From: Promethearchaeota archaeon
Lineage (GTDB): Archaea > Asgardarchaeota > Lokiarchaeia > Sigyniarchaeales > SOKP01
DNA: 53,558 nt
Reading direction: 5' to 3'
Assembly: GCA_013375475.1 (NCBI GenBank)
Contig: JABXKD010000014.1
Location: forward strand, 1-53,558
Shown here: piece after piece, positions 23,422 to 43,800 of the stretch
How the letters are laid out: every line of letters starts with the position of its first letter
Position numbering within the stretch: position 1 is the stretch's first letter
The notes under the pieces: model-generated
What the model was told of the DNA's origin: nothing
Seen by the model: the letters and a program-made list of their open reading frames with translations, nothing else
Databases searched by the model: none
Translations under genes and position numbers: made by a program

Positions 23422-24300
23422 TTATTTATCTTTATTGTTCTCTTCTAAAAACGAAATTCTTGTTTCTAAAATGCTCATTGTCTCAATAATATTATTTATC
23501 GTATTCTGAATTTCCTTTACTCCATTTTGGAGTTCGCCCATTTGATCTAAAATAAATGACATAACATCTGGTCTTTTTACAGGTTCAGTTAACCAATTAA
23601 GAACATTTTGTAAAAATTTTTGATTGTCTAGTGAATTAATTCCTATATTATCATCACTGCAGAAAATATCAATATCACCGAGAGCAATTACTTTTCCTTG
23701 TCCAAAATTTGAATATGCAGCAATAATTTGTTGTTGTTCTTTATCTTTTGTCCATTCTTCAAATGTATTGTTGTAAATTTCTGACCAAATGTTATTTTCA
23801 TCCGTTAGTAATAGAGGTTTTGCCCCTTTTTTTAAGAAAAGAGAACAAGCACCTCCAATTATTACTTCTCTTAACCCATTTACGATTTCATGACGCGGGA
23901 ATTTTTGAATATGAAGAATACTAGAACAGTTTTGATTATGTGAATTTTGTTCTTTAATTAAATTCTTCTCAAAAAAAAAACCAAAATTCGTAGCTAAATC
24001 GTTTAGATTTGTTTTTTGAAGGAAATCTGCTCCGTATTCGCTGACGAGTATTAAATTTCCCCCTATTCTTACGTAATCAACAATATCCTTTATCTCGATA
24101 TTTGAGAAATAGTCGTCAATCGGGTTTCCCAATACTAAAACATCAACATTTTCTAAAAGTTTTTTAGTTAAATCCTTATTTTCATTTTTTATAATATTAA
24201 GATTGAGATTTTTAAGGAGTTTTAAAAATTCAGAAAATTCGTCGTCTAATGTCAACATCTCGCCATGAGAAAGATCGATAAGTATAACCTTACTTTGCAT
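23422..24300 (-). CDS. GIFT (GldG/IFT52, DUF4350-like) domain protein with C-terminal coiled coil
   Basis: ILIDLSHGE, DVLVLGNP..FS..EI..I.DYV..GGNL, TNLN.L...FG, GQGKVIALGD.DIF, DNQKFLQNVLNWL; no signal peptide. Confidence 0.75.
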   Translation of the reverse strand: MQSKVILIDLSHGEMLTLDDEFSEFLKLLKNLNLNIIKNENKDLTKKLLENVDVLVLGNPIDDYFSNIEIKDIVDYVRIGGNLILVSEYGADFLQKTNLNDLATNFGFFFEKNLIKEQNSHNQNCSSILHIQKFPRHEIVNGLREVIIGGACSLFLKKGAKPLLLTDENNIWSEIYNNTFEEWTKDKEQQQIIAAYSNFGQGKVIALGDIDIFCSDDNIGINSLDNQKFLQNVLNWLTEPVKRPDVMSFILDQMGELQNGVKEIQNTINNIIETMSILETRISFLEENNKDK

Positions 24301-33930: not shown

Positions 33931-35298
33931 TTAGTTCTTAAATCCACACTTAGGACAAGTAGAAGCGCCGATAAGCGTTTGACCGCACATTTTACACAAT
34001 TTAACGGTACTTCTTCTAGGAGGTCTTAACGTAGTGATTGAGATTTTCTCCTCTGTCTTCGTTGAACCTTCGGTATCACCCATGACTGATTCAGTTGTAG
34101 GAGAGATGAAATTATTACCTGAACCGTTAGGTTTCACAGCTATTTCTTGACCAAAATATCCTCCAACTCTAACTTTTTTAGTTGGAGTTACCAATGTAGG
34201 AGGTTTACTCAAACTAGGTGGTGATTTAAGTTTTTCGGGATTGAGAATATCCTCACCTATAACCACATGTTCGTGATCCTGTTCAAATACCTGCTCCTCA
34301 AATTCGCTTTCTTCAATATATTCTTCTTCTATTTTCTCCTCAACACTTCCATGTGAAACAATTTCTATTTCTGGTTCTTCTTCGTATTCTTCTTCGTATA
34401 TCATATCTACATATTCTTCATCCAACTTCAAAAGAGTTTGGCAATTTAAACATCTGAAGATATGGTGAAATCCGATATTATTGTTAATAGAATAATCTGC
34501 GGCACAACAAGCGTGATATCTCACATTACAATTAAAACATTTGTGAACTTCATCAGAATAAGCACTACAAATAGGGCACACTTCTTTTTCGCATATATCA
34601 CACTTTTCTTCTTCATCAGGATCTAATGAAATTAAATCTACAGCTAATTTTTCGTAAAATATTTTATCTTCTTTCAAAATTTGACTACTTGCTTCCGGGT
34701 GAACAACATTAAATTCGGATTTACTCTGAACTAGGGACATTAAAATATTAAAAAACGATTTTGCATCATTACAATAGAGTACACCTCCATGAGTTTCACT
34801 GGTTACGACTTTTAATTTAACATCGTCGTTGTAGAACTGTTCTTCTCCTACACGAATAATATCAATAAAAGTATCGAATTTCTTAGCTTTAATTAAAAGA
34901 TCGTAAAGCGCATTATGATAGTCCTCAGATAATGTACTGGGGGTATCAGAGATTATAATTATCCTATAGTTTTTTCGAGCATCTCTACTTCGTCTAAAAA
35001 CATAAGCTAATATTTCAAATAAACCATTTTCAAAAAAACTTCTTTTTATTTCTCTAGTATCCCACTTTTCAGTTATGATTTCGGTAATTGCATTAAAATC
35101 AGTCTTATCATATAATGTTACAGGATTATCGTCAGATTGAAAAAGTAACAATCCATATGAACTCAAAGTATTAAACTTATCTTTTTCTTTGATGAAAGAA
35201 CCAATATTTTTGATAAAGTTCTTTTTCTTAATAAAATCGGTTGTAAGATCGATGTAAAATATAAATTCTTCTGAGCTTATCGAAGTCTTCTTAAACAT
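33931..35298 (-). CDS. vWA domain + PHD/RING-like finger + acidic linker + C-terminal zinc ribbon protein (paralog B)
   Basis: vWA elements FYIDLT, RIIIISD, FIDIIRVG, SETHGG; CDIC-CPIC-CFNC-x4-HACC-CLNC; CKMC..CPKC. Confidence 0.75.
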   Translation of the reverse strand: MFKKTSISSEEFIFYIDLTTDFIKKKNFIKNIGSFIKEKDKFNTLSSYGLLLFQSDDNPVTLYDKTDFNAITEIITEKWDTREIKRSFFENGLFEILAYVFRRSRDARKNYRIIIISDTPSTLSEDYHNALYDLLIKAKKFDTFIDIIRVGEEQFYNDDVKLKVVTSETHGGVLYCNDAKSFFNILMSLVQSKSEFNVVHPEASSQILKEDKIFYEKLAVDLISLDPDEEEKCDICEKEVCPICSAYSDEVHKCFNCNVRYHACCAADYSINNNIGFHHIFRCLNCQTLLKLDEEYVDMIYEEEYEEEPEIEIVSHGSVEEKIEEEYIEESEFEEQVFEQDHEHVVIGEDILNPEKLKSPPSLSKPPTLVTPTKKVRVGGYFGQEIAVKPNGSGNNFISPTTESVMGDTEGSTKTEEKISITTLRPPRRSTVKLCKMCGQTLIGASTCPKCGFKN

Positions 35299-35440
35299 AT
35301 TTAGATCCAGATTTAGTATAAATTTTATCCAAAAATGAAGTGATTAAATGATAAGAGAATTTTTATTTATTTTTATTGATCTTTGTTAAGTTCTCATTAT
35401 TAAAGACCATAAATTTACATGAAAATAGAATAGAGGAATT

Positions 35441-36838
35441 TTAAATTTCTAATGTATGTCCGCAATAAGGACAAGATTGTTTATCATTATTCTTTTCATC
35501 AATCTGGGTACCACAACTAGGACAATTTATAACGCTCGGTTTTTCAACACTTCTATTAGCGCTAAAATCGTTTCCTGATTGACTCGAGAGTTGTGGTATC
35601 TCGACTTTATTAGGTTTTGGTTCTGAAATTAAATCATTTTTTCTTTCGTAAGCATTATTATTCATTTCAGACTCATTGGATGTAGTTACTTTTTGATAGA
35701 CGAGTTTATCGCCTTCTTTTTTAATAGTATATGTCTTTCCAAAAAAACCCCCGATCCTAACTTTTTGGAGATTATCTTCATACGATTCTCCAATTGCGAT
35801 ATCAGGAGTTCCTTTAGTTTCTATGTAAGATTCTTCATTATAAAATTGCTCTGGTTCCTCAAAAGTAGGGTTTTCCACCAAATTTGTAGCAATTTCTTCC
35901 TTCTCTAAATAGTCTTCAACCGATTCAGTTACAGATTCATAAGGTTCGACAATTTCATCTTGATCGATTTTTAAGAGAATATCACACTTAGGGCATCGAA
36001 AAATGTGGGGTATTCCAATATTATTTTGTATCGTATAATTAGTCACACAGCAATTATGAAACGCAGAATTACAACTTTCACAAATCTGTAATGTATCGTT
36101 TATATCGGCACAACAGGGACAAATCTCTTCTTGGCAAAGATGACACTTCAATCCCACCTCATTTGTATTTGATGGTATTAATCTTTTAGCTAAGCGAGAA
36201 TAAAATTCATAGTCTTCCATCTTAATTTTGATCTTATCTGGTTGTTCTTCTAGTGCTTTCACTTGTTGTTTGGATTTGATTAGGTTTTTTATTATTGTTA
36301 TGAAATCTTTTTTTTCTGATAAATAAAACATTGCACCATTAGTATCGCTTGCCAAAATATTTAATTTGACATCATCTCTAAAAAACCGTTCTTCTTTTTC
36401 TGAAACTCTTATAATATCTATGAAAGTTGGTATTACTTTGATTTTAGACACTAACCCAAATAATGCTTCAGTATAATCCTCAGATAGATCGCTAGGGGTA
36501 TCAGTTATTATGATAATTCTATTATGTCTTGATTTTTTTCTTACAGTTTCTGCTATATATGAAAATATGTAAAAAAGCCCGTTTTCGAAGAACGATTGTT
36601 TTTTAGGACGAGTTTTCCAGTTTTCTTCAATGGCATTTTGAATAATTTCAGAGTCTTTCTTATCTGTTATAAATATAGGATTCCCTGCGTCTTGGAAGAT
36701 AAGTAAACCATAATGTCCTTTAATATTTGTTTTATTTCTTTCAGAAATATAGTACTTAATGGCTTTATTGACTTCTTTCTTCTTTAAAATATCCTTGGTT
36801 AAATCTAAGTAGAAAAAAATATCTTCATAGGGGCTCAT
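35441..36838 (-). CDS. vWA domain + PHD/RING-like finger + acidic linker + C-terminal zinc ribbon protein (paralog A)
   Basis: FYLDLT, RIIIITD, FIDIIRVS, SDTNG; CHLC-CPCC-CESC-x4-HNCC-CPKC; CPSC..CPYC; clearly paralogous to 33931..35298. Confidence 0.75.
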   Translation of the reverse strand: MSPYEDIFFYLDLTKDILKKKEVNKAIKYYISERNKTNIKGHYGLLIFQDAGNPIFITDKKDSEIIQNAIEENWKTRPKKQSFFENGLFYIFSYIAETVRKKSRHNRIIIITDTPSDLSEDYTEALFGLVSKIKVIPTFIDIIRVSEKEERFFRDDVKLNILASDTNGAMFYLSEKKDFITIIKNLIKSKQQVKALEEQPDKIKIKMEDYEFYSRLAKRLIPSNTNEVGLKCHLCQEEICPCCADINDTLQICESCNSAFHNCCVTNYTIQNNIGIPHIFRCPKCDILLKIDQDEIVEPYESVTESVEDYLEKEEIATNLVENPTFEEPEQFYNEESYIETKGTPDIAIGESYEDNLQKVRIGGFFGKTYTIKKEGDKLVYQKVTTSNESEMNNNAYERKNDLISEPKPNKVEIPQLSSQSGNDFSANRSVEKPSVINCPSCGTQIDEKNNDKQSCPYCGHTLEI

Positions 36839-36953
36839 AATAATATTTAAAACCTAACGTCTTTATAATTTAGTGTAGAGAGTTATAGTTTAAATATTTT
36901 CTTTAATCTAAAAAACTTTAAAAAATAGATATTGATATTACTTATTATTAAAA

Positions 36954-38936
36954 GTGAAAAGGAATGAGACCAATATGGAAGAATTATTAAAAAACATCCA
37001 ACTTTCAGATAGAGGAATCGAATTATACTTGCGATGTATTGGTCAACAACCATTATCTTCATTTGAACTATTCTCTCTTTTGCCAAATGTTTCTCAGGAA
37101 GAATTTTCTAATACTATAAAAGAGCTTGTTGAATTTGGTTTATTCGTGCCTATAAAACTTCAAGGATCAAATTTACCTTCACAATATCTAGCATTACCTC
37201 CAATTAATCCTATTTTAAATTACTATAGTAATATAAACGCTAATTTAGAAAGCATTAAAAATCAAGTACAAATACTTATATCGAATTCTCTAATCTCAAT
37301 ATTCCAAAAAAATAAGATTATTGAATTAGATACTATGTTTGAAGCTACACAAGAATTAAGGAAAGATATTGAAGAAGATGTAATAATTCAGAAACAAGAT
37401 ATTGATGACATCGTACAAGGTATAGAAAACCTGAAAGTTGTAAAAACTGTACTTGAAGATCTACGTCAATCAACAAAAAGCGTTATCCAAACTCAATTCT
37501 CGTATCTAATCAAATTAATCACTAATATAAAGAAAGATATCAACAATAAAGTCGAATCTTTAGAATTAAAAAAAACGGAGAAAGTTGTAAAAGACGCGAT
37601 CGAAGAAGTATTTAAAGAGAATTTTAATAAATTTTTAGGTGATTTTACCGCTAATTTACACAAATTAATAGAAGAAGAATTTAACAATACGATCGAATCT
37701 CTTAACAATATAATTGATTCAACTTTCCAATTTCGGAACGATTTTCAAATGGTTTTACTTAATATGTTAAACAGCAATGAGACGAAGATTAATACAATAA
37801 TTGAATTAATTAAAACAAAACGAATTAGCCTAGGAGACGATCTTAACAAATTTGAAAATGTGATTTTAGATAATTTCAAAGAAATTGTTTATAATTCTGT
37901 TGATTCTGTTGCTGCTTTAAATAATCCCATTAATACAGCCTTAGAGAGCTACTTAAAGGCAGTTATACCTTCAGAAGAGAATGATTTCTGGCAAGTAAAG
38001 AGTATCTCAAGAGTAAACGAAGAAATAATGCTTAGGATTTCCGAATCAAAACAAAAATTATTGATCATTGTTCCCAAACTTGAAGATCACATTGCTATAG
38101 ATGATTTCAAGAATATTTCAAAAAACCTTAAAATTGAAATTGCGTCTTCAGAGCCTCATACTAATAGCCATGTTAAAACAATAAAAGAACATAAAAACCT
38201 CGAGTATCGGACTCTTAAAAAAGATAATGTTATTATTTGTAAAAGCGACGATAACTATTTTCTTGTTGGAATGCTAAGAGGAGATTCGCAAAATTCGCAG
38301 GAAGATTTTATAGGATTTGCAACAAGTAATAAATTTCTGATTAAATTATTCCTTTTTGTTGTTAATGCCGTTTGGGATACTGCTAGTTCTAGTTTACATG
38401 AAACTCCAAGATCTCTCGGTATTAGTGCCCCCACAGAAGGGAAGGGAATAAAAACTTCACACCCAATTACTTCAACTCACTTTACAACACTCCAGAAAAA
38501 ACCTGTTCCCCCATCTATTGAAATTCCAGTAAGTATCAAAACTCAAGCTTCGGATGAGGTCAAAACAAACGAAAAAATCCCAAACATATCAGAAAAACTC
38601 CAGGGAAAAATTGAAAAACCTGTTAAGCCAATAGATACTAATTCAGCACCTAAGAAGACAATAGAACCCATTAAATCAGATGAAGACGCAGCAGTTCTTA
38701 TCAAGAACGCTTTTAAAGATTTAATACAAAAACTCCACAAACTTAATGGAGAAGAATTCAGTAAAGAAATGGAAACTATTGCAGATTTAATATTGGAAAA
38801 GAAGGGATTCAGCGTAACCCTACATAAGATAAGGAGTAAAATCAATCAATATAAAACTCATTTAGGCCATCTCAACGATACAGATATTAACCATATAATT
38901 GAGAGTATTGAAGAATGGGAGAATCACATATTGTAG
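36954..38936 (+). CDS. TrmB-like wHTH + long coiled coil + PLD-like domain + C-terminal helical domain protein
   Basis: N-terminal LS..GIELYL..L.E.GL..YLALPP; ~230-aa helical region; ISESKQKLLIIVP...D....LVG; P/T/K-rich linker. Confidence 0.65.
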   Translation: MKRNETNMEELLKNIQLSDRGIELYLRCIGQQPLSSFELFSLLPNVSQEEFSNTIKELVEFGLFVPIKLQGSNLPSQYLALPPINPILNYYSNINANLESIKNQVQILISNSLISIFQKNKIIELDTMFEATQELRKDIEEDVIIQKQDIDDIVQGIENLKVVKTVLEDLRQSTKSVIQTQFSYLIKLITNIKKDINNKVESLELKKTEKVVKDAIEEVFKENFNKFLGDFTANLHKLIEEEFNNTIESLNNIIDSTFQFRNDFQMVLLNMLNSNETKINTIIELIKTKRISLGDDLNKFENVILDNFKEIVYNSVDSVAALNNPINTALESYLKAVIPSEENDFWQVKSISRVNEEIMLRISESKQKLLIIVPKLEDHIAIDDFKNISKNLKIEIASSEPHTNSHVKTIKEHKNLEYRTLKKDNVIICKSDDNYFLVGMLRGDSQNSQEDFIGFATSNKFLIKLFLFVVNAVWDTASSSLHETPRSLGISAPTEGKGIKTSHPITSTHFTTLQKKPVPPSIEIPVSIKTQASDEVKTNEKIPNISEKLQGKIEKPVKPIDTNSAPKKTIEPIKSDEDAAVLIKNAFKDLIQKLHKLNGEEFSKEMETIADLILEKKGFSVTLHKIRSKINQYKTHLGHLNDTDINHIIESIEEWENHIL

Positions 38937-38988: not shown

Positions 38989-39768
38989 TTATACTTCTTT
39001 CCTTCTTTTTGCAAGTAAATTAAGTATAAACGAATGTAAGAGTACCCATCCAAATAAAAGAATAAACAACATTAAAAAAATAATTGAAACCGTAAGAGAC
39101 ACTAAAGGTGTCGGATTCAAGATTCCAATAAGACCGAATATGGGGGATAAGGGAGCAAATAATATAAATATAACATATACAATTTTACTTTTTTCACCAA
39201 ATTTAATATGAGTAGTGATATTTAACCACCCAATAAAGATTAAAAGGAAAGGTACAAAATAATAGGAAAAGTCTAAGAAAGGGTAATTCAAACCACCCAA
39301 TGCAAATGCGTGGAAATAGTTGCTATAAAAGTAACCGATCATTAGAAGACAACTTACTGGCGTTGGTACTCCTGTATAACCAGGATCTGCTATAATATTA
39401 AACCTTGCTAACCTCAAAATCGCGCCTAACGCAAAGCAGATACTTCCGATTACAAGAAAATAATCGTAAATTGTCCCAGTTTTAAATGCCTGAAAAGTTA
39501 AAACCGCTGGTACTATACCAAATGTAAGTGAATCGCTTAAAGAATCAAGTTCTTTTCCTATTTCGTTTACCGTTCCAGTTTTCCTCGCGATATATCCATC
39601 TATTAAATCAGTCCCTAATGTGATTGAGATTAAAAAAAAACCTAAAGATACAGCATCTCGGGCTCCAAATGAACCACATATCAACGCGATTATACCGATT
39701 GTGGTCCCTGTTAGCGTCACATAATCCTTTATTTTTAATAAACTGGGTATCGTTGATTTAGTTGACAT
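38989..39768 (-). CDS. pssA: CDP-alcohol phosphatidyltransferase, PssA / archaetidylserine synthase type
   Basis: DLIDGYIAR...GKELDSLSDSLTFG, LRLARFN, YTGVPTP. Confidence 0.85.
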   Translation of the reverse strand: MSTKSTIPSLLKIKDYVTLTGTTIGIIALICGSFGARDAVSLGFFLISITLGTDLIDGYIARKTGTVNEIGKELDSLSDSLTFGIVPAVLTFQAFKTGTIYDYFLVIGSICFALGAILRLARFNIIADPGYTGVPTPVSCLLMIGYFYSNYFHAFALGGLNYPFLDFSYYFVPFLLIFIGWLNITTHIKFGEKSKIVYVIFILFAPLSPIFGLIGILNPTPLVSLTVSIIFLMLFILLFGWVLLHSFILNLLAKRRKEV

Positions 39769-39932: not shown

Positions 39933-40712
39933 ATGAATTGTCCGAATTGTGGGGATCCCGTTGATGGTGAATCCCAAAAATTCTGCGAAAAATGCGGCAC
40001 AGATTTACGATCAGTTAAACAAGCGGTTAAAAAGGATGAAAAAATTAGCTTAACCTCTCCTCCAAGTCAACATCCTATAGAAAACAGTGATCTTTTTGAT
40101 TTAAACAGAAACTATTACGTAATTAAAGAACGCATGTGGGATATGGGTTACGGCGATATTATGGATGAAGAAGGTAAACTTATTGGTCGTATGAATCGTA
40201 TATTATTTAGCATAAGAAGACGAGTGGAACTTCAAGAATTGGATGGCACTGTCGTTGCCACTATTCACAGTAAGATAGTTTCCGCGCGTGGTGCTCAAGA
40301 TTTAAAGACGCCAGACGGGGAACTAATAGCTAGAATCAAAAAGAAAATACTAACCTTCTTTAAATCTAAGTTTTATTTGGAAGACCCGCTCGGTACGCGT
40401 TGGTTTGAAGCCGACGGAGACTTTTTTGGCTGGTCGTTTAAAATCTACGATTTAACTACGGGAAAATTAGTAGCAGAAATAGATAAAGCTGATCGGTGGA
40501 GAGATGTCTTCCTCGGGGGAATTTTTGACTTTGCTGATAGATATGCTCTAAGAATTTTAGATAATGAAACTGACAGAAGGATTTTATTAGGTTTTGTTTT
40601 GTCTATTGATAATGTGATGCACGATGCTAGCGGTGGCAGGGGAATGATGGGCGTTCCTTTTGGTCGTGGAAGACGTCCTGGTCCATTTGGAGTTCTTGGT
40701 CGTCGAATGTGA
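39933..40712 (+). CDS. Zinc ribbon + LURP-one/scramblase (Tubby C-like) domain protein
   Basis: CPNCG..FCEKCG; repeated I.DE.G..IG units, GDFFGWSF.I, D.YAL.I, C-terminal helix LLGFVLSID. Confidence 0.8.
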   Translation: MNCPNCGDPVDGESQKFCEKCGTDLRSVKQAVKKDEKISLTSPPSQHPIENSDLFDLNRNYYVIKERMWDMGYGDIMDEEGKLIGRMNRILFSIRRRVELQELDGTVVATIHSKIVSARGAQDLKTPDGELIARIKKKILTFFKSKFYLEDPLGTRWFEADGDFFGWSFKIYDLTTGKLVAEIDKADRWRDVFLGGIFDFADRYALRILDNETDRRILLGFVLSIDNVMHDASGGRGMMGVPFGRGRRPGPFGVLGRRM

Positions 40713-41437: not shown

Positions 41438-41977
41438 ATGTCACTTCAAAAAACACGTGAGTTCATGTTAAATGAAAAAATGATTTCTTTAACAGATAAA
41501 GGTGAAATCAAGAACTTAGAGGGCGAGTTACTTGGCACATTTCGTGGAAATTTAATTAAGATTGGTAATACCTACCGTATAAGAGATCTTAACGATGTTC
41601 CCATATTAACGATTCATGAAAAGATAATCTCTCTTCGCTCAACTTATACATTTTATAGAGGTGGAGAGCAAGAGGACGATAAATTCATTGGGAAACTGAA
41701 ACAAAAAATTGTGGCATTTCCAGCTAAATATTGGTTTGAGGATCCTAATGAGAATAAAGTTTTCACGATGAAAGGAAATGTCATGACGCTTAAATTCAGG
41801 ATTTTTAAAGATGGCCAGGAAGTTGCCGAAATACGAAAAAAATTATGGAAAAGTCTTTTAAAGAATACATTTGGAATAAAAATGTCTCCAGACCTTGATG
41901 ACGATTCCGCAATGCTCATTCTTGGTATAGTCATTATGCTCCACCACGAAAAAGAGGAAAATCGGAAAAGACATTAA
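41438..41977 (+). CDS. LURP-one/scramblase family protein
   Basis: EKMISL, repeated hairpin units, MKGN..LKF.I.KDG..VAEI.KK, TFGI, C-terminal helix LILGIVIML. Confidence 0.82.
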   Translation: MSLQKTREFMLNEKMISLTDKGEIKNLEGELLGTFRGNLIKIGNTYRIRDLNDVPILTIHEKIISLRSTYTFYRGGEQEDDKFIGKLKQKIVAFPAKYWFEDPNENKVFTMKGNVMTLKFRIFKDGQEVAEIRKKLWKSLLKNTFGIKMSPDLDDDSAMLILGIVIMLHHEKEENRKRH

Positions 41978-43116: not shown

Positions 43117-43800
43117 TTAAGCCTCGTCGTCGGGTTCAATTTCTTCCAAAACTTCTTCTTCTTCGGAATCTTCTTCTCCTTCAGCTTCTTCCTCGCTCTC
43201 GCTAAATTCAATTGTTTTTGGTTCTACTTCATCAGGTTCTGATGGCTTTTCAATAGGTTCTCTGTATTCCGCTTCAATTTTTTCAGGTATATTTTTCTTC
43301 TTGATTTTTTTTAAACCTTCTATTGCTTCCTTCCGCACTATTGGGCTTTTATCCTTCAAAGCTTTGGCTAATATATCCAACGAGTGGGGGTGATGATAAT
43401 CTCCTAATTCATCAGCAGCCTCTTTACGAACTAATTCATCGGAATCGTTCATTAAAATGTAAGCAAAAACGCCTAGAACTTCTGCTTCTCCTAAATCTCC
43501 TAAGGTGTCAACAGCATCCTTTCTAACGCCAGGATCAGGATCAGTTAATGCTGTATTGGCCAATTCTTTTAAAGTCCTATCGGAATATCCTAATGGCCTT
43601 ATAGAACTTAAATCCACTCCGCAGAATTTACAAAAATTATGACCAATTTTAATTACTTTACCACACGAAGGGCAAATACGCTGAGTATCAAAATTAATAC
43701 CATCTTTTGCAAAACTCGTGGGAGCTGGCTCATGTTCAGGCTCTCTATTTACCCTATAAGGATTTTTCCCTTGATTTGGATTATGTTTATTGTATCCCAT
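43117..43800 (-). CDS. Zinc ribbon + HEAT (PBS-lyase type) repeat protein with acidic tail
   Basis: CPSCG..FCKFCG; three D..VRK.A...LG repeats; E/D-rich C-terminus. Confidence 0.82.
   Translation of the reverse strand: MGYNKHNPNQGKNPYRVNREPEHEPAPTSFAKDGINFDTQRICPSCGKVIKIGHNFCKFCGVDLSSIRPLGYSDRTLKELANTALTDPDPGVRKDAVDTLGDLGEAEVLGVFAYILMNDSDELVRKEAADELGDYHHPHSLDILAKALKDKSPIVRKEAIEGLKKIKKKNIPEKIEAEYREPIEKPSEPDEVEPKTIEFSESEEEAEGEEDSEEEEVLEEIEPDDEA

Follow-up and report, generated by a model that had tools for sequence, protein, structure and literature searches.

A conserved tandem pair of vWA-plus-RING/PHD-finger genes beside a weakly TrmB-like gene in one order of Lokiarchaeia

The window considered here is the 53,558-nucleotide sequence of contig JABXKD010000014.1 (assembly GCA_013375475.1, positions 1 to 53,558 of the forward strand) from a Promethearchaeota archaeon of the order Sigyniarchaeales (Lokiarchaeia). 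Two adjacent genes lie on its minus strand, B (35441..36838, 465 residues) and A (33931..35298, 455 residues), separated by a spacer of 142 bases, and a third gene, N660, is oriented divergently upstream of B. Protein B is composed of a von Willebrand factor A (vWA) domain, a RING/PHD finger, an acidic linker, a beta motif and a terminal zinc ribbon; protein A has the same layout plus an S-I-T-x-L-x-P-P motif ahead of its ribbon. The two are 36% identical over their whole length (BLASTP, about 470 columns, E 2e-90), a likeness far beyond chance, and judged by sequence they are paralogs, which bears out a preliminary description of this DNA that had called them tandem and diverged. The pair is genuine, conserved and as yet uncharacterised, and it belongs to the vWA-plus-RING/PHD kind; its likeness to the p44/p34 pair of TFIIH is unproven and its taxonomic range is narrow.

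In alignments of 33 B-type and 34 A-type orthologs, all elements that the preliminary description had listed for the two genes are present and conserved. Orthologs of B are 49-96% identical over 80 species-level genomes, and the gene appears to be under strong purifying selection. B has 372 homologs at E <= 1e-3. A full HMMER search of 1.84 billion representative proteins with A gives just 147 at that threshold. Scans of A, B and N660 with Pfam, NCBIfam and PADLOC give no model over its cut-off and no defence-system match, and a literature search on Asgard and Lokiarchaeota vWA, RING, PHD, TFIIH and ubiquitin proteins found no description of the A/B family, which Asgard supplementary tables may nevertheless list. 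An earlier computational survey of RING fingers in prokaryotes, from which the Pfam Prok-RING families reportedly derive, may already report fusions of vWA and RING. In one metatranscriptome, A, B and N660 are each covered by one short contig at 98.5-100% identity; this is a weak hint of expression, as DNA carry-over is possible and the contigs carry no information on strand, transcript ends or co-transcription.

For B, AlphaFold2 was run on 25 aligned sequences; the model, with a mean predicted local distance difference test (pLDDT) of 62.5, has a confident alpha/beta domain at residues 1-190, a finger of moderate confidence and disordered stretches at 302-356 and 386-433. The N-terminal domain of B (residues 1-190; 36269..36838, minus strand) reaches block pLDDT values of 59-91, mostly above 70, and strands and helices alternate across residues 4-186 as in a vWA fold; the corresponding domain of A (residues 1-192; 34723..35298, minus strand) aligns with it. 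The MIDAS, or metal-ion-dependent adhesion site, is degenerate in both proteins. The canonical DxSxS is replaced by D12-L-T-K-D in B and D17-L-T-T-D in A, where the first Asp alone is invariant and the second and third positions vary among orthologs, and this holds in all 33 B-type and all 34 A-type rows. A second invariant Asp (D113 in B) lies in the D-T-P-S segment, which is itself invariant, as is a FENGLF segment; D17, D118, P120 and S121 are invariant in the 34 A-type rows. The claim of an N-terminal vWA fold with DLT in place of DxSxS is borne out, the fold by the predicted model and its structural matches at Z around 18.

What does this domain resemble most? In a Foldseek search of the B model against the PDB, TFIIH p44, yeast Tfb4 and Ssl1 come out on top (E 2.8e-9 to ~1e-7) with alignments of 335-364 columns that include the zinc fingers, and ITIH1, ANTXR1/2, Rpn10, Ku80 and BABAM1 trail at ~1e-6. 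A VIA-align search of the vWA model against 48,161 representative chains, in which rows within 1 Z unit count as tied, returns 103 chains at Z >= 8; the rows listed, with Z 14-18.8 and 159-191 aligned residues, are vWA domains. They include p44 (Z 18.8, 180 residues, root-mean-square deviation 2.8), Ssl1 (18.3 and 18.0), an Entamoeba lectin (17.9), Rpn10 (17.8, 177 residues, deviation 2.6), archaeal ArnB (8s05_B), the ArnB paralog 5a8j (15.1) and p34 (16.1). As for whether the domain stands closer to TFIIH than to vWA proteins at large, which the preliminary description had made a decisive point, p44 is nominally first but cannot be separated from Rpn10, the two lying within the tie range, and ArnB reaches 17.2. 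Among sequence models, VWA_2 scores 14.5 bits on B (cut-off 27) and does not match A, and 4 of the 33 B-type rows match it (best E 0.013). Neither A nor B matches Ssl1 (PF04056), Tfb4 (PF03850) or C1_4 at E <= 1; Ssl1 is absent among the 25 most frequent of the 74 Pfam families that these rows match.

The finger occupies residues 228-296 of B (35951..36157, minus strand) and 229-297 of A (34408..34614, minus strand). In B it reads C232-x2-C235-x4-C240-x2-C243-x9-C253-x2-C256-x4-H261-x-C263-C264-x17-C282-x2-C285, exactly the pattern that had been claimed, and A has the same pattern shifted by one residue, with C233, C236, C241, C244, C254, C257, H262, C264, C283 and C286 invariant; the ligands are invariant or nearly so in both sets of orthologs. 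The 11 conserved Cys/His suffice for the two zinc sites of a RING/PHD fold and, probably, for a third. The C4HC3 spacing of PHD/RING-type fingers that had been read from the sequence is found in B, where C240-x2-C243-x9-C253-x2-C256-x4-H261-x2-C264-x17-C282-x2-C285 has the spacing of PHD ligands and F280 lies two residues before ligand 7; the alignment with the paralogs C and D described below indicates that C232/C235 may be the first ligand pair instead. A model of the finger alone (B residues 196-302, 48 sequences, pLDDT 84) folds like cross-braced RINGs, a check that the preliminary description had proposed. Its best VIA-align matches are the RINGs of FANCL (Z 6.8), listerin (6.5/6.3), Deltex2 (6.0), NSE1 (5.8) and APC11 (5.6), followed by PHF7 (5.3), the p44 RING (5.3, 58 residues), Slx1 (5.1), Ssl1 and the p34/p44 minimal complex (both 4.7) and the VIN3 PHD finger (4.2). 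Nearly all of the 50 listed rows are RING, U-box or PHD domains (Z 6.8-4.2, 48-76 residues aligned), and every Z is below the guide value of 8, as is usual for domains so small. Foldseek gives nothing below E 0.06 for the finger, with a list made up mostly of RINGs; by sequence, what the B-family profile matches best in the PDB is the KDM5D PHD finger (E 0.036). Pfam PHD (PF00628) is not listed for A or B, nor is the TFIIH C1-like RING (PF07975) for A, B, C or D. These alignments suggest a cross-brace binuclear zinc fold, which is called RING/PHD-type here because the fold matches are cross-brace RINGs while the best sequence match is a PHD finger.

The three C-terminal elements that had been described, an acidic linker, a KVR[IV]GG[FY]FG motif and a terminal zinc ribbon, are likewise present and conserved. 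The linker of B (residues 297-355; 35774..35950, minus strand) is predicted to be disordered, with pLDDT below 50 over residues 302-356, and its alignment columns are gapped. In a related population (run X2), DNA contigs omit 177-181 bases inside it (window 35758-35949), so that its length varies between strains. The conserved motif that follows (B residues 356-383; 35690..35773, minus strand), KVRIGGFFGK-Y-VKKEGDKLVYQK, is a probable beta hairpin with strands predicted, at low confidence, at 358-362, 368-375 and 378-383; G363, F366, G367 and Y381 are invariant. Its counterpart in A (residues 374-390; 34129..34179, minus strand) is KKVRVGGYFGQEI, with G380, F382 and G383 invariant. A six-frame translation of the 3.92-Mb genome holds two matches to KVRIGGFFG (B) and KVRVGGYFG (A), and both are the genes themselves. 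The proteins end in C4 zinc ribbons, at residues 436-465 of B (35444..35533, minus strand; C439, C442, C456 and C459 invariant) and 432-455 of A (33934..34005, minus strand; C435, C438, C448 and C451 invariant), and Zn_ribbon_3 matches 23 of the 33 B-type rows (best E 8e-7).

The origin of the pair becomes clearer from more distant relatives. Among 15 remote homologs of A, a Pfam scan gives matches to VWA_2, VWA, Ssl1, Prok-RING_1 and PHD, and the Ssl1 model leads to two further vWA-plus-finger genes in the genome of the window (G000): paralog C (contig C210, L089:5703-6887, plus strand, 394 residues) and paralog D (contig C236, L090:4911-6110, minus strand, 399 residues). Both have a canonical D-x-S-R-S MIDAS, a first finger like that of A and B, and a second, C-terminal RING/PHD finger that matches the RINGs of Arkadia and RNF13 (E 2e-6 to 6e-5). 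On C, VWA_2 (57.9 bits, cut-off 27), Ssl1 (40.2, cut-off 27) and PHD (27.8, cut-off 24; the first finger) all pass; on D, VWA_2 (65.7) and Ssl1 (32.0) pass the same cut-offs, with PHD (22.3) and Tfb4 (20.9, cut-off 27) below theirs. When the B and C/D families are aligned by hhalign, the probability is 99.3 (E 7e-21) over 276 columns spanning the vWA domain, the linker helix and the finger, which identifies A and B as diverged, MIDAS-less members of a vWA-plus-finger family; at the sequence level, the homology of their vWA domain is established solely through C and D. Against the PDB, the C/D profile matches a bacterial BatA-like protein (1.3e-15), Rpn10 (4e-14) and human p44 (4.5e-14) near-equally, so p44 is not set apart by the match to Ssl1. 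In a protein atlas in which scores under 0.9 are leads only, the C/D clusters score 0.94 and 0.93, with Ssl1 in 76-92% of their members, and the nearest named clusters beyond the Lokiarchaeial ones are those of eukaryotic p44 (0.88-0.86) and Tfb4 (0.81).

There are longer relatives as well as a third paralog. Proteins P0228 and P0234 (~1100 residues) and P0232 and P0241 (~620-730 residues) have a vWA domain, a finger and a double zinc ribbon and extend several hundred residues further, one of them with a weak sialyltransferase-like match. A third A/B-like paralog of ~380-390 residues (E 1e-28 to 1e-36 against the B profile) occurs in many genomes of the window's own family, for example at G183:C74:71152-72090 and G276:C16:37790-38722, and is lacking in the window's own genome.

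The distribution of the family was followed by a profile search of 300 further genomes, sampled evenly across the phylum. Matches occur in 66 of 68 genomes of the window's own family (f1), in all seven of its sister family (f2), in the one genome of f4 and in none of f3 (0/1). Genes of A/B type are found in 73 of the 75 genomes sampled from the window's own order, whereas the 223 genomes that represent 26 other families gave no match; the f4 match is a C/D-type gene. Conservation of the family across Asgard classes was considered and rejected, the even sample having matched only the own order apart from this one C/D cross-hit. Most homologs go under the name Lokiarchaeota or Promethearchaeota; a few are labelled Thor-, Odin-, Hod-, Hermod- or Heimdallarchaeota, and these last labels are not relied on because they conflict with genome-based taxonomy. 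Two or more matches occur in most of the listed genomes of the own family and one in its genus g4 and in most of the sister family; the tandem pair is largely limited to one family. C/D-type genes number ~2 per genome all through the class of the window, and the phylum sample yielded none outside it. Those positive for Ssl1 have a range like that of the A/B type: Ssl1 passes its cut-off in 75 of 301 genomes of the phylum, and a single one of the 76 genomes in which it matches at all (E <= 0.001) lies outside the window's class. A tree of the first 320 residues, built from 47 selected rows of A, B, single-copy forms and C/D, splits the A/B type from C/D at 100/100 support and joins the single-copy genes to B at 96/100 on long branches that the program flags, though the single-copy protein of genus g4 has A-type motifs.

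The arrangement of the locus is close to fixed. Among 80 loci from 80 species-level genomes, gathered along the lines of the synteny check that had been suggested, 74 have a gene of A type immediately downstream of B and in the same orientation, with a median gap of 166 bases and a gap of 3.8 kb in one locus; in five of the six loci without it, the contig ends within 119 bases after B. N660 is divergent upstream of B in 78 loci, and in the other two the contig ends there. In the window, N660 (36975..38936, plus strand) encodes 653 residues with a weakly TrmB-like winged helix, a long coiled coil, a middle domain and a C-terminal helical domain. Its start is likely the ATG at 36975 rather than the GTG at 36954 that gives the longest open reading frame, because orthologs begin at an equivalent Met. 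Between B and N660 lie 136 bp of AT-rich DNA (36839..36974) flanked by divergent genes and presumably holding both promoters; its inverted repeats are weak (76-85% complementary, in AT-rich DNA). The TrmB-like character that had been ascribed to this neighbour holds weakly and by way of its relatives: 2 of 21 orthologs match TrmB (PF01978; best E 0.0061), 1 of 21 matches Regulator_TrmB (E 0.004), and 25-33% of the members of its atlas clusters carry Pfam TrmB; the window protein itself has no Pfam match. The N660 profile finds two chance-level matches alone among PDB sequences (E 0.24 and 1). Full-length N660 (E < 1e-130) is found solely in the family with the tandem pair, where weaker paralogs are abundant, and genomes of genus g4 have a 500-residue relative, ~2.4 kb from the single-copy gene in one fetched locus. 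N660 also belongs to an expanded set of proteins of 600-1,000 residues that share N-terminal, middle and C-terminal parts, with 3-5 matches in several genomes of the own family.

The interpretation of the pair can start from its architecture, its homology to MIDAS-bearing paralogs, its strong conservation, its restriction to one order and the near-fixed arrangement of three genes. The explanation that we prefer, tentatively and with rather less than even confidence, is that A and B form a lineage-specific zinc-scaffold pair that acts with the TrmB-like protein as an adaptor in transcription- or chromatin-linked regulation. On this reading, A and B would derive from the Lokiarchaeial vWA-plus-RING/PHD-finger family, and the vWA domain, having lost its MIDAS, would serve as a metal-independent docking platform for proteins, as in TFIIH p34/p44, Rpn10 and BABAM1. 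Second and third contacts could come from the fingers, beta motifs and ribbons and so build an A/B hetero-oligomer in the manner of p44/p34; a hetero-oligomer joined through vWA-finger and tail contacts is the most economical reading because each chain has all three kinds of module found in p44/p34. N660 may be a third subunit that brings the complex to DNA, or else a regulator of the B-A operon, and the complex would act in transcription- or chromatin-linked regulation as an adaptor and not as an enzyme.

Several observations weigh against this adaptor model. Locus L058 continues for 3.4 kb downstream of B without a gene of A type, and three fetched genomes, one of genus g4 in the own family and two of the sister family, have a single A/B-type gene; the three products share the A/B architecture, with 34-40% identity to A as well as to B. 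The single-copy genes of the sister family also lack an N660 neighbour, which implies that neither the partner paralog nor N660 is strictly needed. The adjacency of the paralogs can simply reflect recent duplication, the TrmB assignment of N660 is weak, judged from sequence and with no Pfam match on the window protein, and the best structural matches of the finger (FANCL, listerin, Deltex, APC11) are RINGs of E3 ligases that bind E2 enzymes.

This last point favours the main rival, which we consider somewhat less likely than the adaptor model: each protein would be an E3 ligase of the RING type, or the two would combine an active with an inactive RING, in the eukaryote-like ubiquitin system of the archaeon. 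The finger would recruit the E2~Ub conjugate, and the vWA domain and tail motifs would choose substrates, as in plant RGLG and WAV3. The genome does encode such a system, since contig C37 (L091:67-6164) carries genes for a ubiquitin-like protein, a leucine-rich-repeat protein, an E1 (ThiF), an E2 (UQ_con, 93 bits) and a JAB deubiquitinase; no RING gene is found on this 6.3-kb contig, so the E3 must be encoded elsewhere. The top of the fold search agrees with this role, as FANCL was matched within an E2-E3 complex and is followed by listerin, Deltex2 and APC11, and the C-terminal finger of C and D resembles the Arkadia and RNF13 RINGs. Four positions past the sixth ligand there is an aromatic residue, Y268 in B and Trp in C and D, at the place where RING-H2 ligases have their E2-contacting Trp, and ligases that combine vWA and RING are found in eukaryotes. 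However, the pair is unlinked to the ubiquitin operon, and no component of such a system occurs among the 23 neighbours scanned. All Z scores of the finger are below 8, a range that the tool flags as common, the C-x2-C-x4-H spacing of ligands 3-4-5 is of PHD type, and the last Cys is followed by Asp or Asn in place of the usual linchpin Arg. Most PHD fingers are not known to be ligases. The A/B type is moreover confined to one order, whereas ubiquitin systems have been reported across several Asgard lineages.

The proposal that had accompanied the discovery of the pair was a relation to the TFIIH core. In its strict form, A, B, C and D would be true archaeal relatives of p44/Ssl1 and p34/Tfb4, and a heterodimer would regulate XPD and/or XPB in repair or transcription, which we consider improbable. 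What stands of the proposal is that p44/Ssl1 is the nearest look-alike by three methods: p44, Ssl1 and Tfb4 head the Foldseek list through vWA domain and fingers, p44 and Ssl1 have the highest VIA-align Z scores, and the p44 and Tfb4 clusters are the nearest named ones outside the Lokiarchaeia in the atlas (0.88-0.81, a lead only). To this may be added that C and D exceed the Ssl1 cut-off of 27 bits, as do proteins of a quarter of the genomes of the phylum sample, that the genome has two XPD-type (DEAD_2) genes, and that the order of vWA domain and zinc finger, with a degenerate MIDAS, mirrors p34 (PMC4094531). What does not stand is the specificity of the likeness. Rpn10 lies within 1 Z unit of p44, the profile of C and D fits BatA-like proteins, Rpn10 and p44 about equally well, and both paralogs score higher on the generic VWA_2 model than on Ssl1; C1_4 is not listed for either, Tfb4 stays below its cut-off on D, and A and B match none of the three TFIIH models. 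The two XPD-like genes, on contigs C277 and C44, have no linkage to the window, and there is no ubiquitin, XPD or XPB gene near A and B. The failure to find the family in the 223 genomes of other families, with a tandem pair largely limited to one, weakens the link to a TFIIH origin further, and the A/B duplication, being internal to one order, cannot be that which gave rise to eukaryotic p44 and p34.

An equally doubtful alternative takes the finger as a PHD-type reader of histones or of other basic N-terminal peptides, and the pair as a chromatin reader. The best sequence match is indeed a PHD finger (KDM5D), with which the ligand spacing and the aromatic residue two positions before ligand 7 agree, the first finger of C exceeds the Pfam PHD cut-off, and the PHD fingers of PHF7 and VIN3 are among the fold matches; yet the fold search gives more RINGs than PHD fingers and ranks them higher, a scan of 23 neighbours showed no histone gene, and a tailed histone substrate in this lineage is at most putative. 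We give as little credence to a last idea, that the A/B/C/D family is an archaeal sister group of p44/p34 in which A and B have independently re-created a p44/p34-like heterodimer, with the winged-helix coiled-coil protein and possibly XPD/XPB, and in which the MIDAS-less vWA domain of one chain would hold the cross-brace finger of the other.

A and B can be compared with several known systems. Like A and B, TFIIH p44 (GTF2H2/Ssl1) starts with a vWA domain, after which come its zinc fingers, one of them a cross-brace RING-like domain. In TFIIH, p44 binds XPD and stimulates it, within a core to which p34, p52, p62 and XPB also belong. However, the p44 RING-like domain is of C4C4 type, and the finger of A and B has a C4HC3 pattern with three extra ligands; A and B add the acidic linker, the beta motif and the terminal ribbon, have no Ssl1 or C1_4 sequence match and are confined to one archaeal order. 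TFIIH p34 (GTF2H3/Tfb4) shares with A and B a disrupted MIDAS in which the first Asp alone is kept and a C-terminal C4 zinc module, and it pairs with a paralogous vWA-finger protein, as A and B may do with each other (PMC4094531, PMC5737387). The vWA domain of p34 with its disrupted MIDAS binds the p44 RING, and a second contact is made by the C-terminal zinc domain of p34 (PMC4094531, PMC5737387). In contrast to A and B, p34 lacks a RING/PHD finger, and the Tfb4 model of Pfam finds neither of them. Within this comparison, prediction of a complex of full-length B and A, run with alignments, scores 0.00 in both runs against a mark of 0.32, which neither supports nor opposes binding.

Closer to home, C and D belong to the same class of genomes and are homologous to A and B in vWA domain, linker helix and first finger. 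They differ in keeping DxSxS and in their C-terminal part, where a second finger stands instead of the acidic linker, beta motif and ribbon; they are ~395-400 residues long, not in tandem and not beside N660. Rpn10 (PSMD4) has the vWA fold in common with A and B (Z 17.8). In place of zinc fingers it has ubiquitin-interacting motifs. The plant E3 ligases RGLG and WAV3/SOR1 join one vWA domain and one RING per chain. Their RINGs are of HC or H2 type, and that of WAV3 is N-terminal. In Sulfolobus, ArnB is an archaeal vWA protein that works in gene regulation with a zinc-finger partner, ArnA, which also has an FHA domain; unlike in A and B, zinc finger and vWA domain are divided between two chains, a RING/PHD finger is lacking and phosphorylation drives the interaction.

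A vWA domain joined to a RING/PHD finger is found in central adaptors of eukaryotes, such as TFIIH p44/p34 and the plant RGLG and WAV3 proteins, and Rpn10 has a closely related vWA domain, whereas the prokaryotic roots of such adaptors are poorly documented. Here, one Asgard order holds a four-member family of this kind, in which two members have lost the metal site and become fixed in tandem beside N660. If the pair should prove to be a p44/p34-like heterodimer, or the missing E3, it would offer a tractable prokaryotic model of a eukaryotic type of assembly, and under the sister-group idea it would be the first prokaryotic model for the rise of the non-enzymatic core of TFIIH; the narrow distribution limits what can be concluded about eukaryogenesis.

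In the wider surroundings of the pair, a scan of 23 other neighbours found no member of ubiquitin, repair or transcription systems among them. Beyond N660, a CDP-alcohol phosphatidyltransferase is present in 67 of the 80 loci (window 38989-39768, minus strand) and a zinc-ribbon/LURP-one-related protein in 64; the window has two LURP-one-related (tubby-like) proteins, at 39933-40712 and 41438-41977, both on the plus strand and one with an N-terminal zinc ribbon; it is the gene at 39933-40712 that stays in place beside N660 in the 64 loci. Farther away, a protein of 292 residues (23422-24300, minus strand) matches the GIFT domain of IFT52, a protein of intraflagellar transport, with 41.5 bits against a cut-off of 27.2, and a small protein encoded at 43117-43800 (minus strand) combines a zinc ribbon with HEAT repeats.

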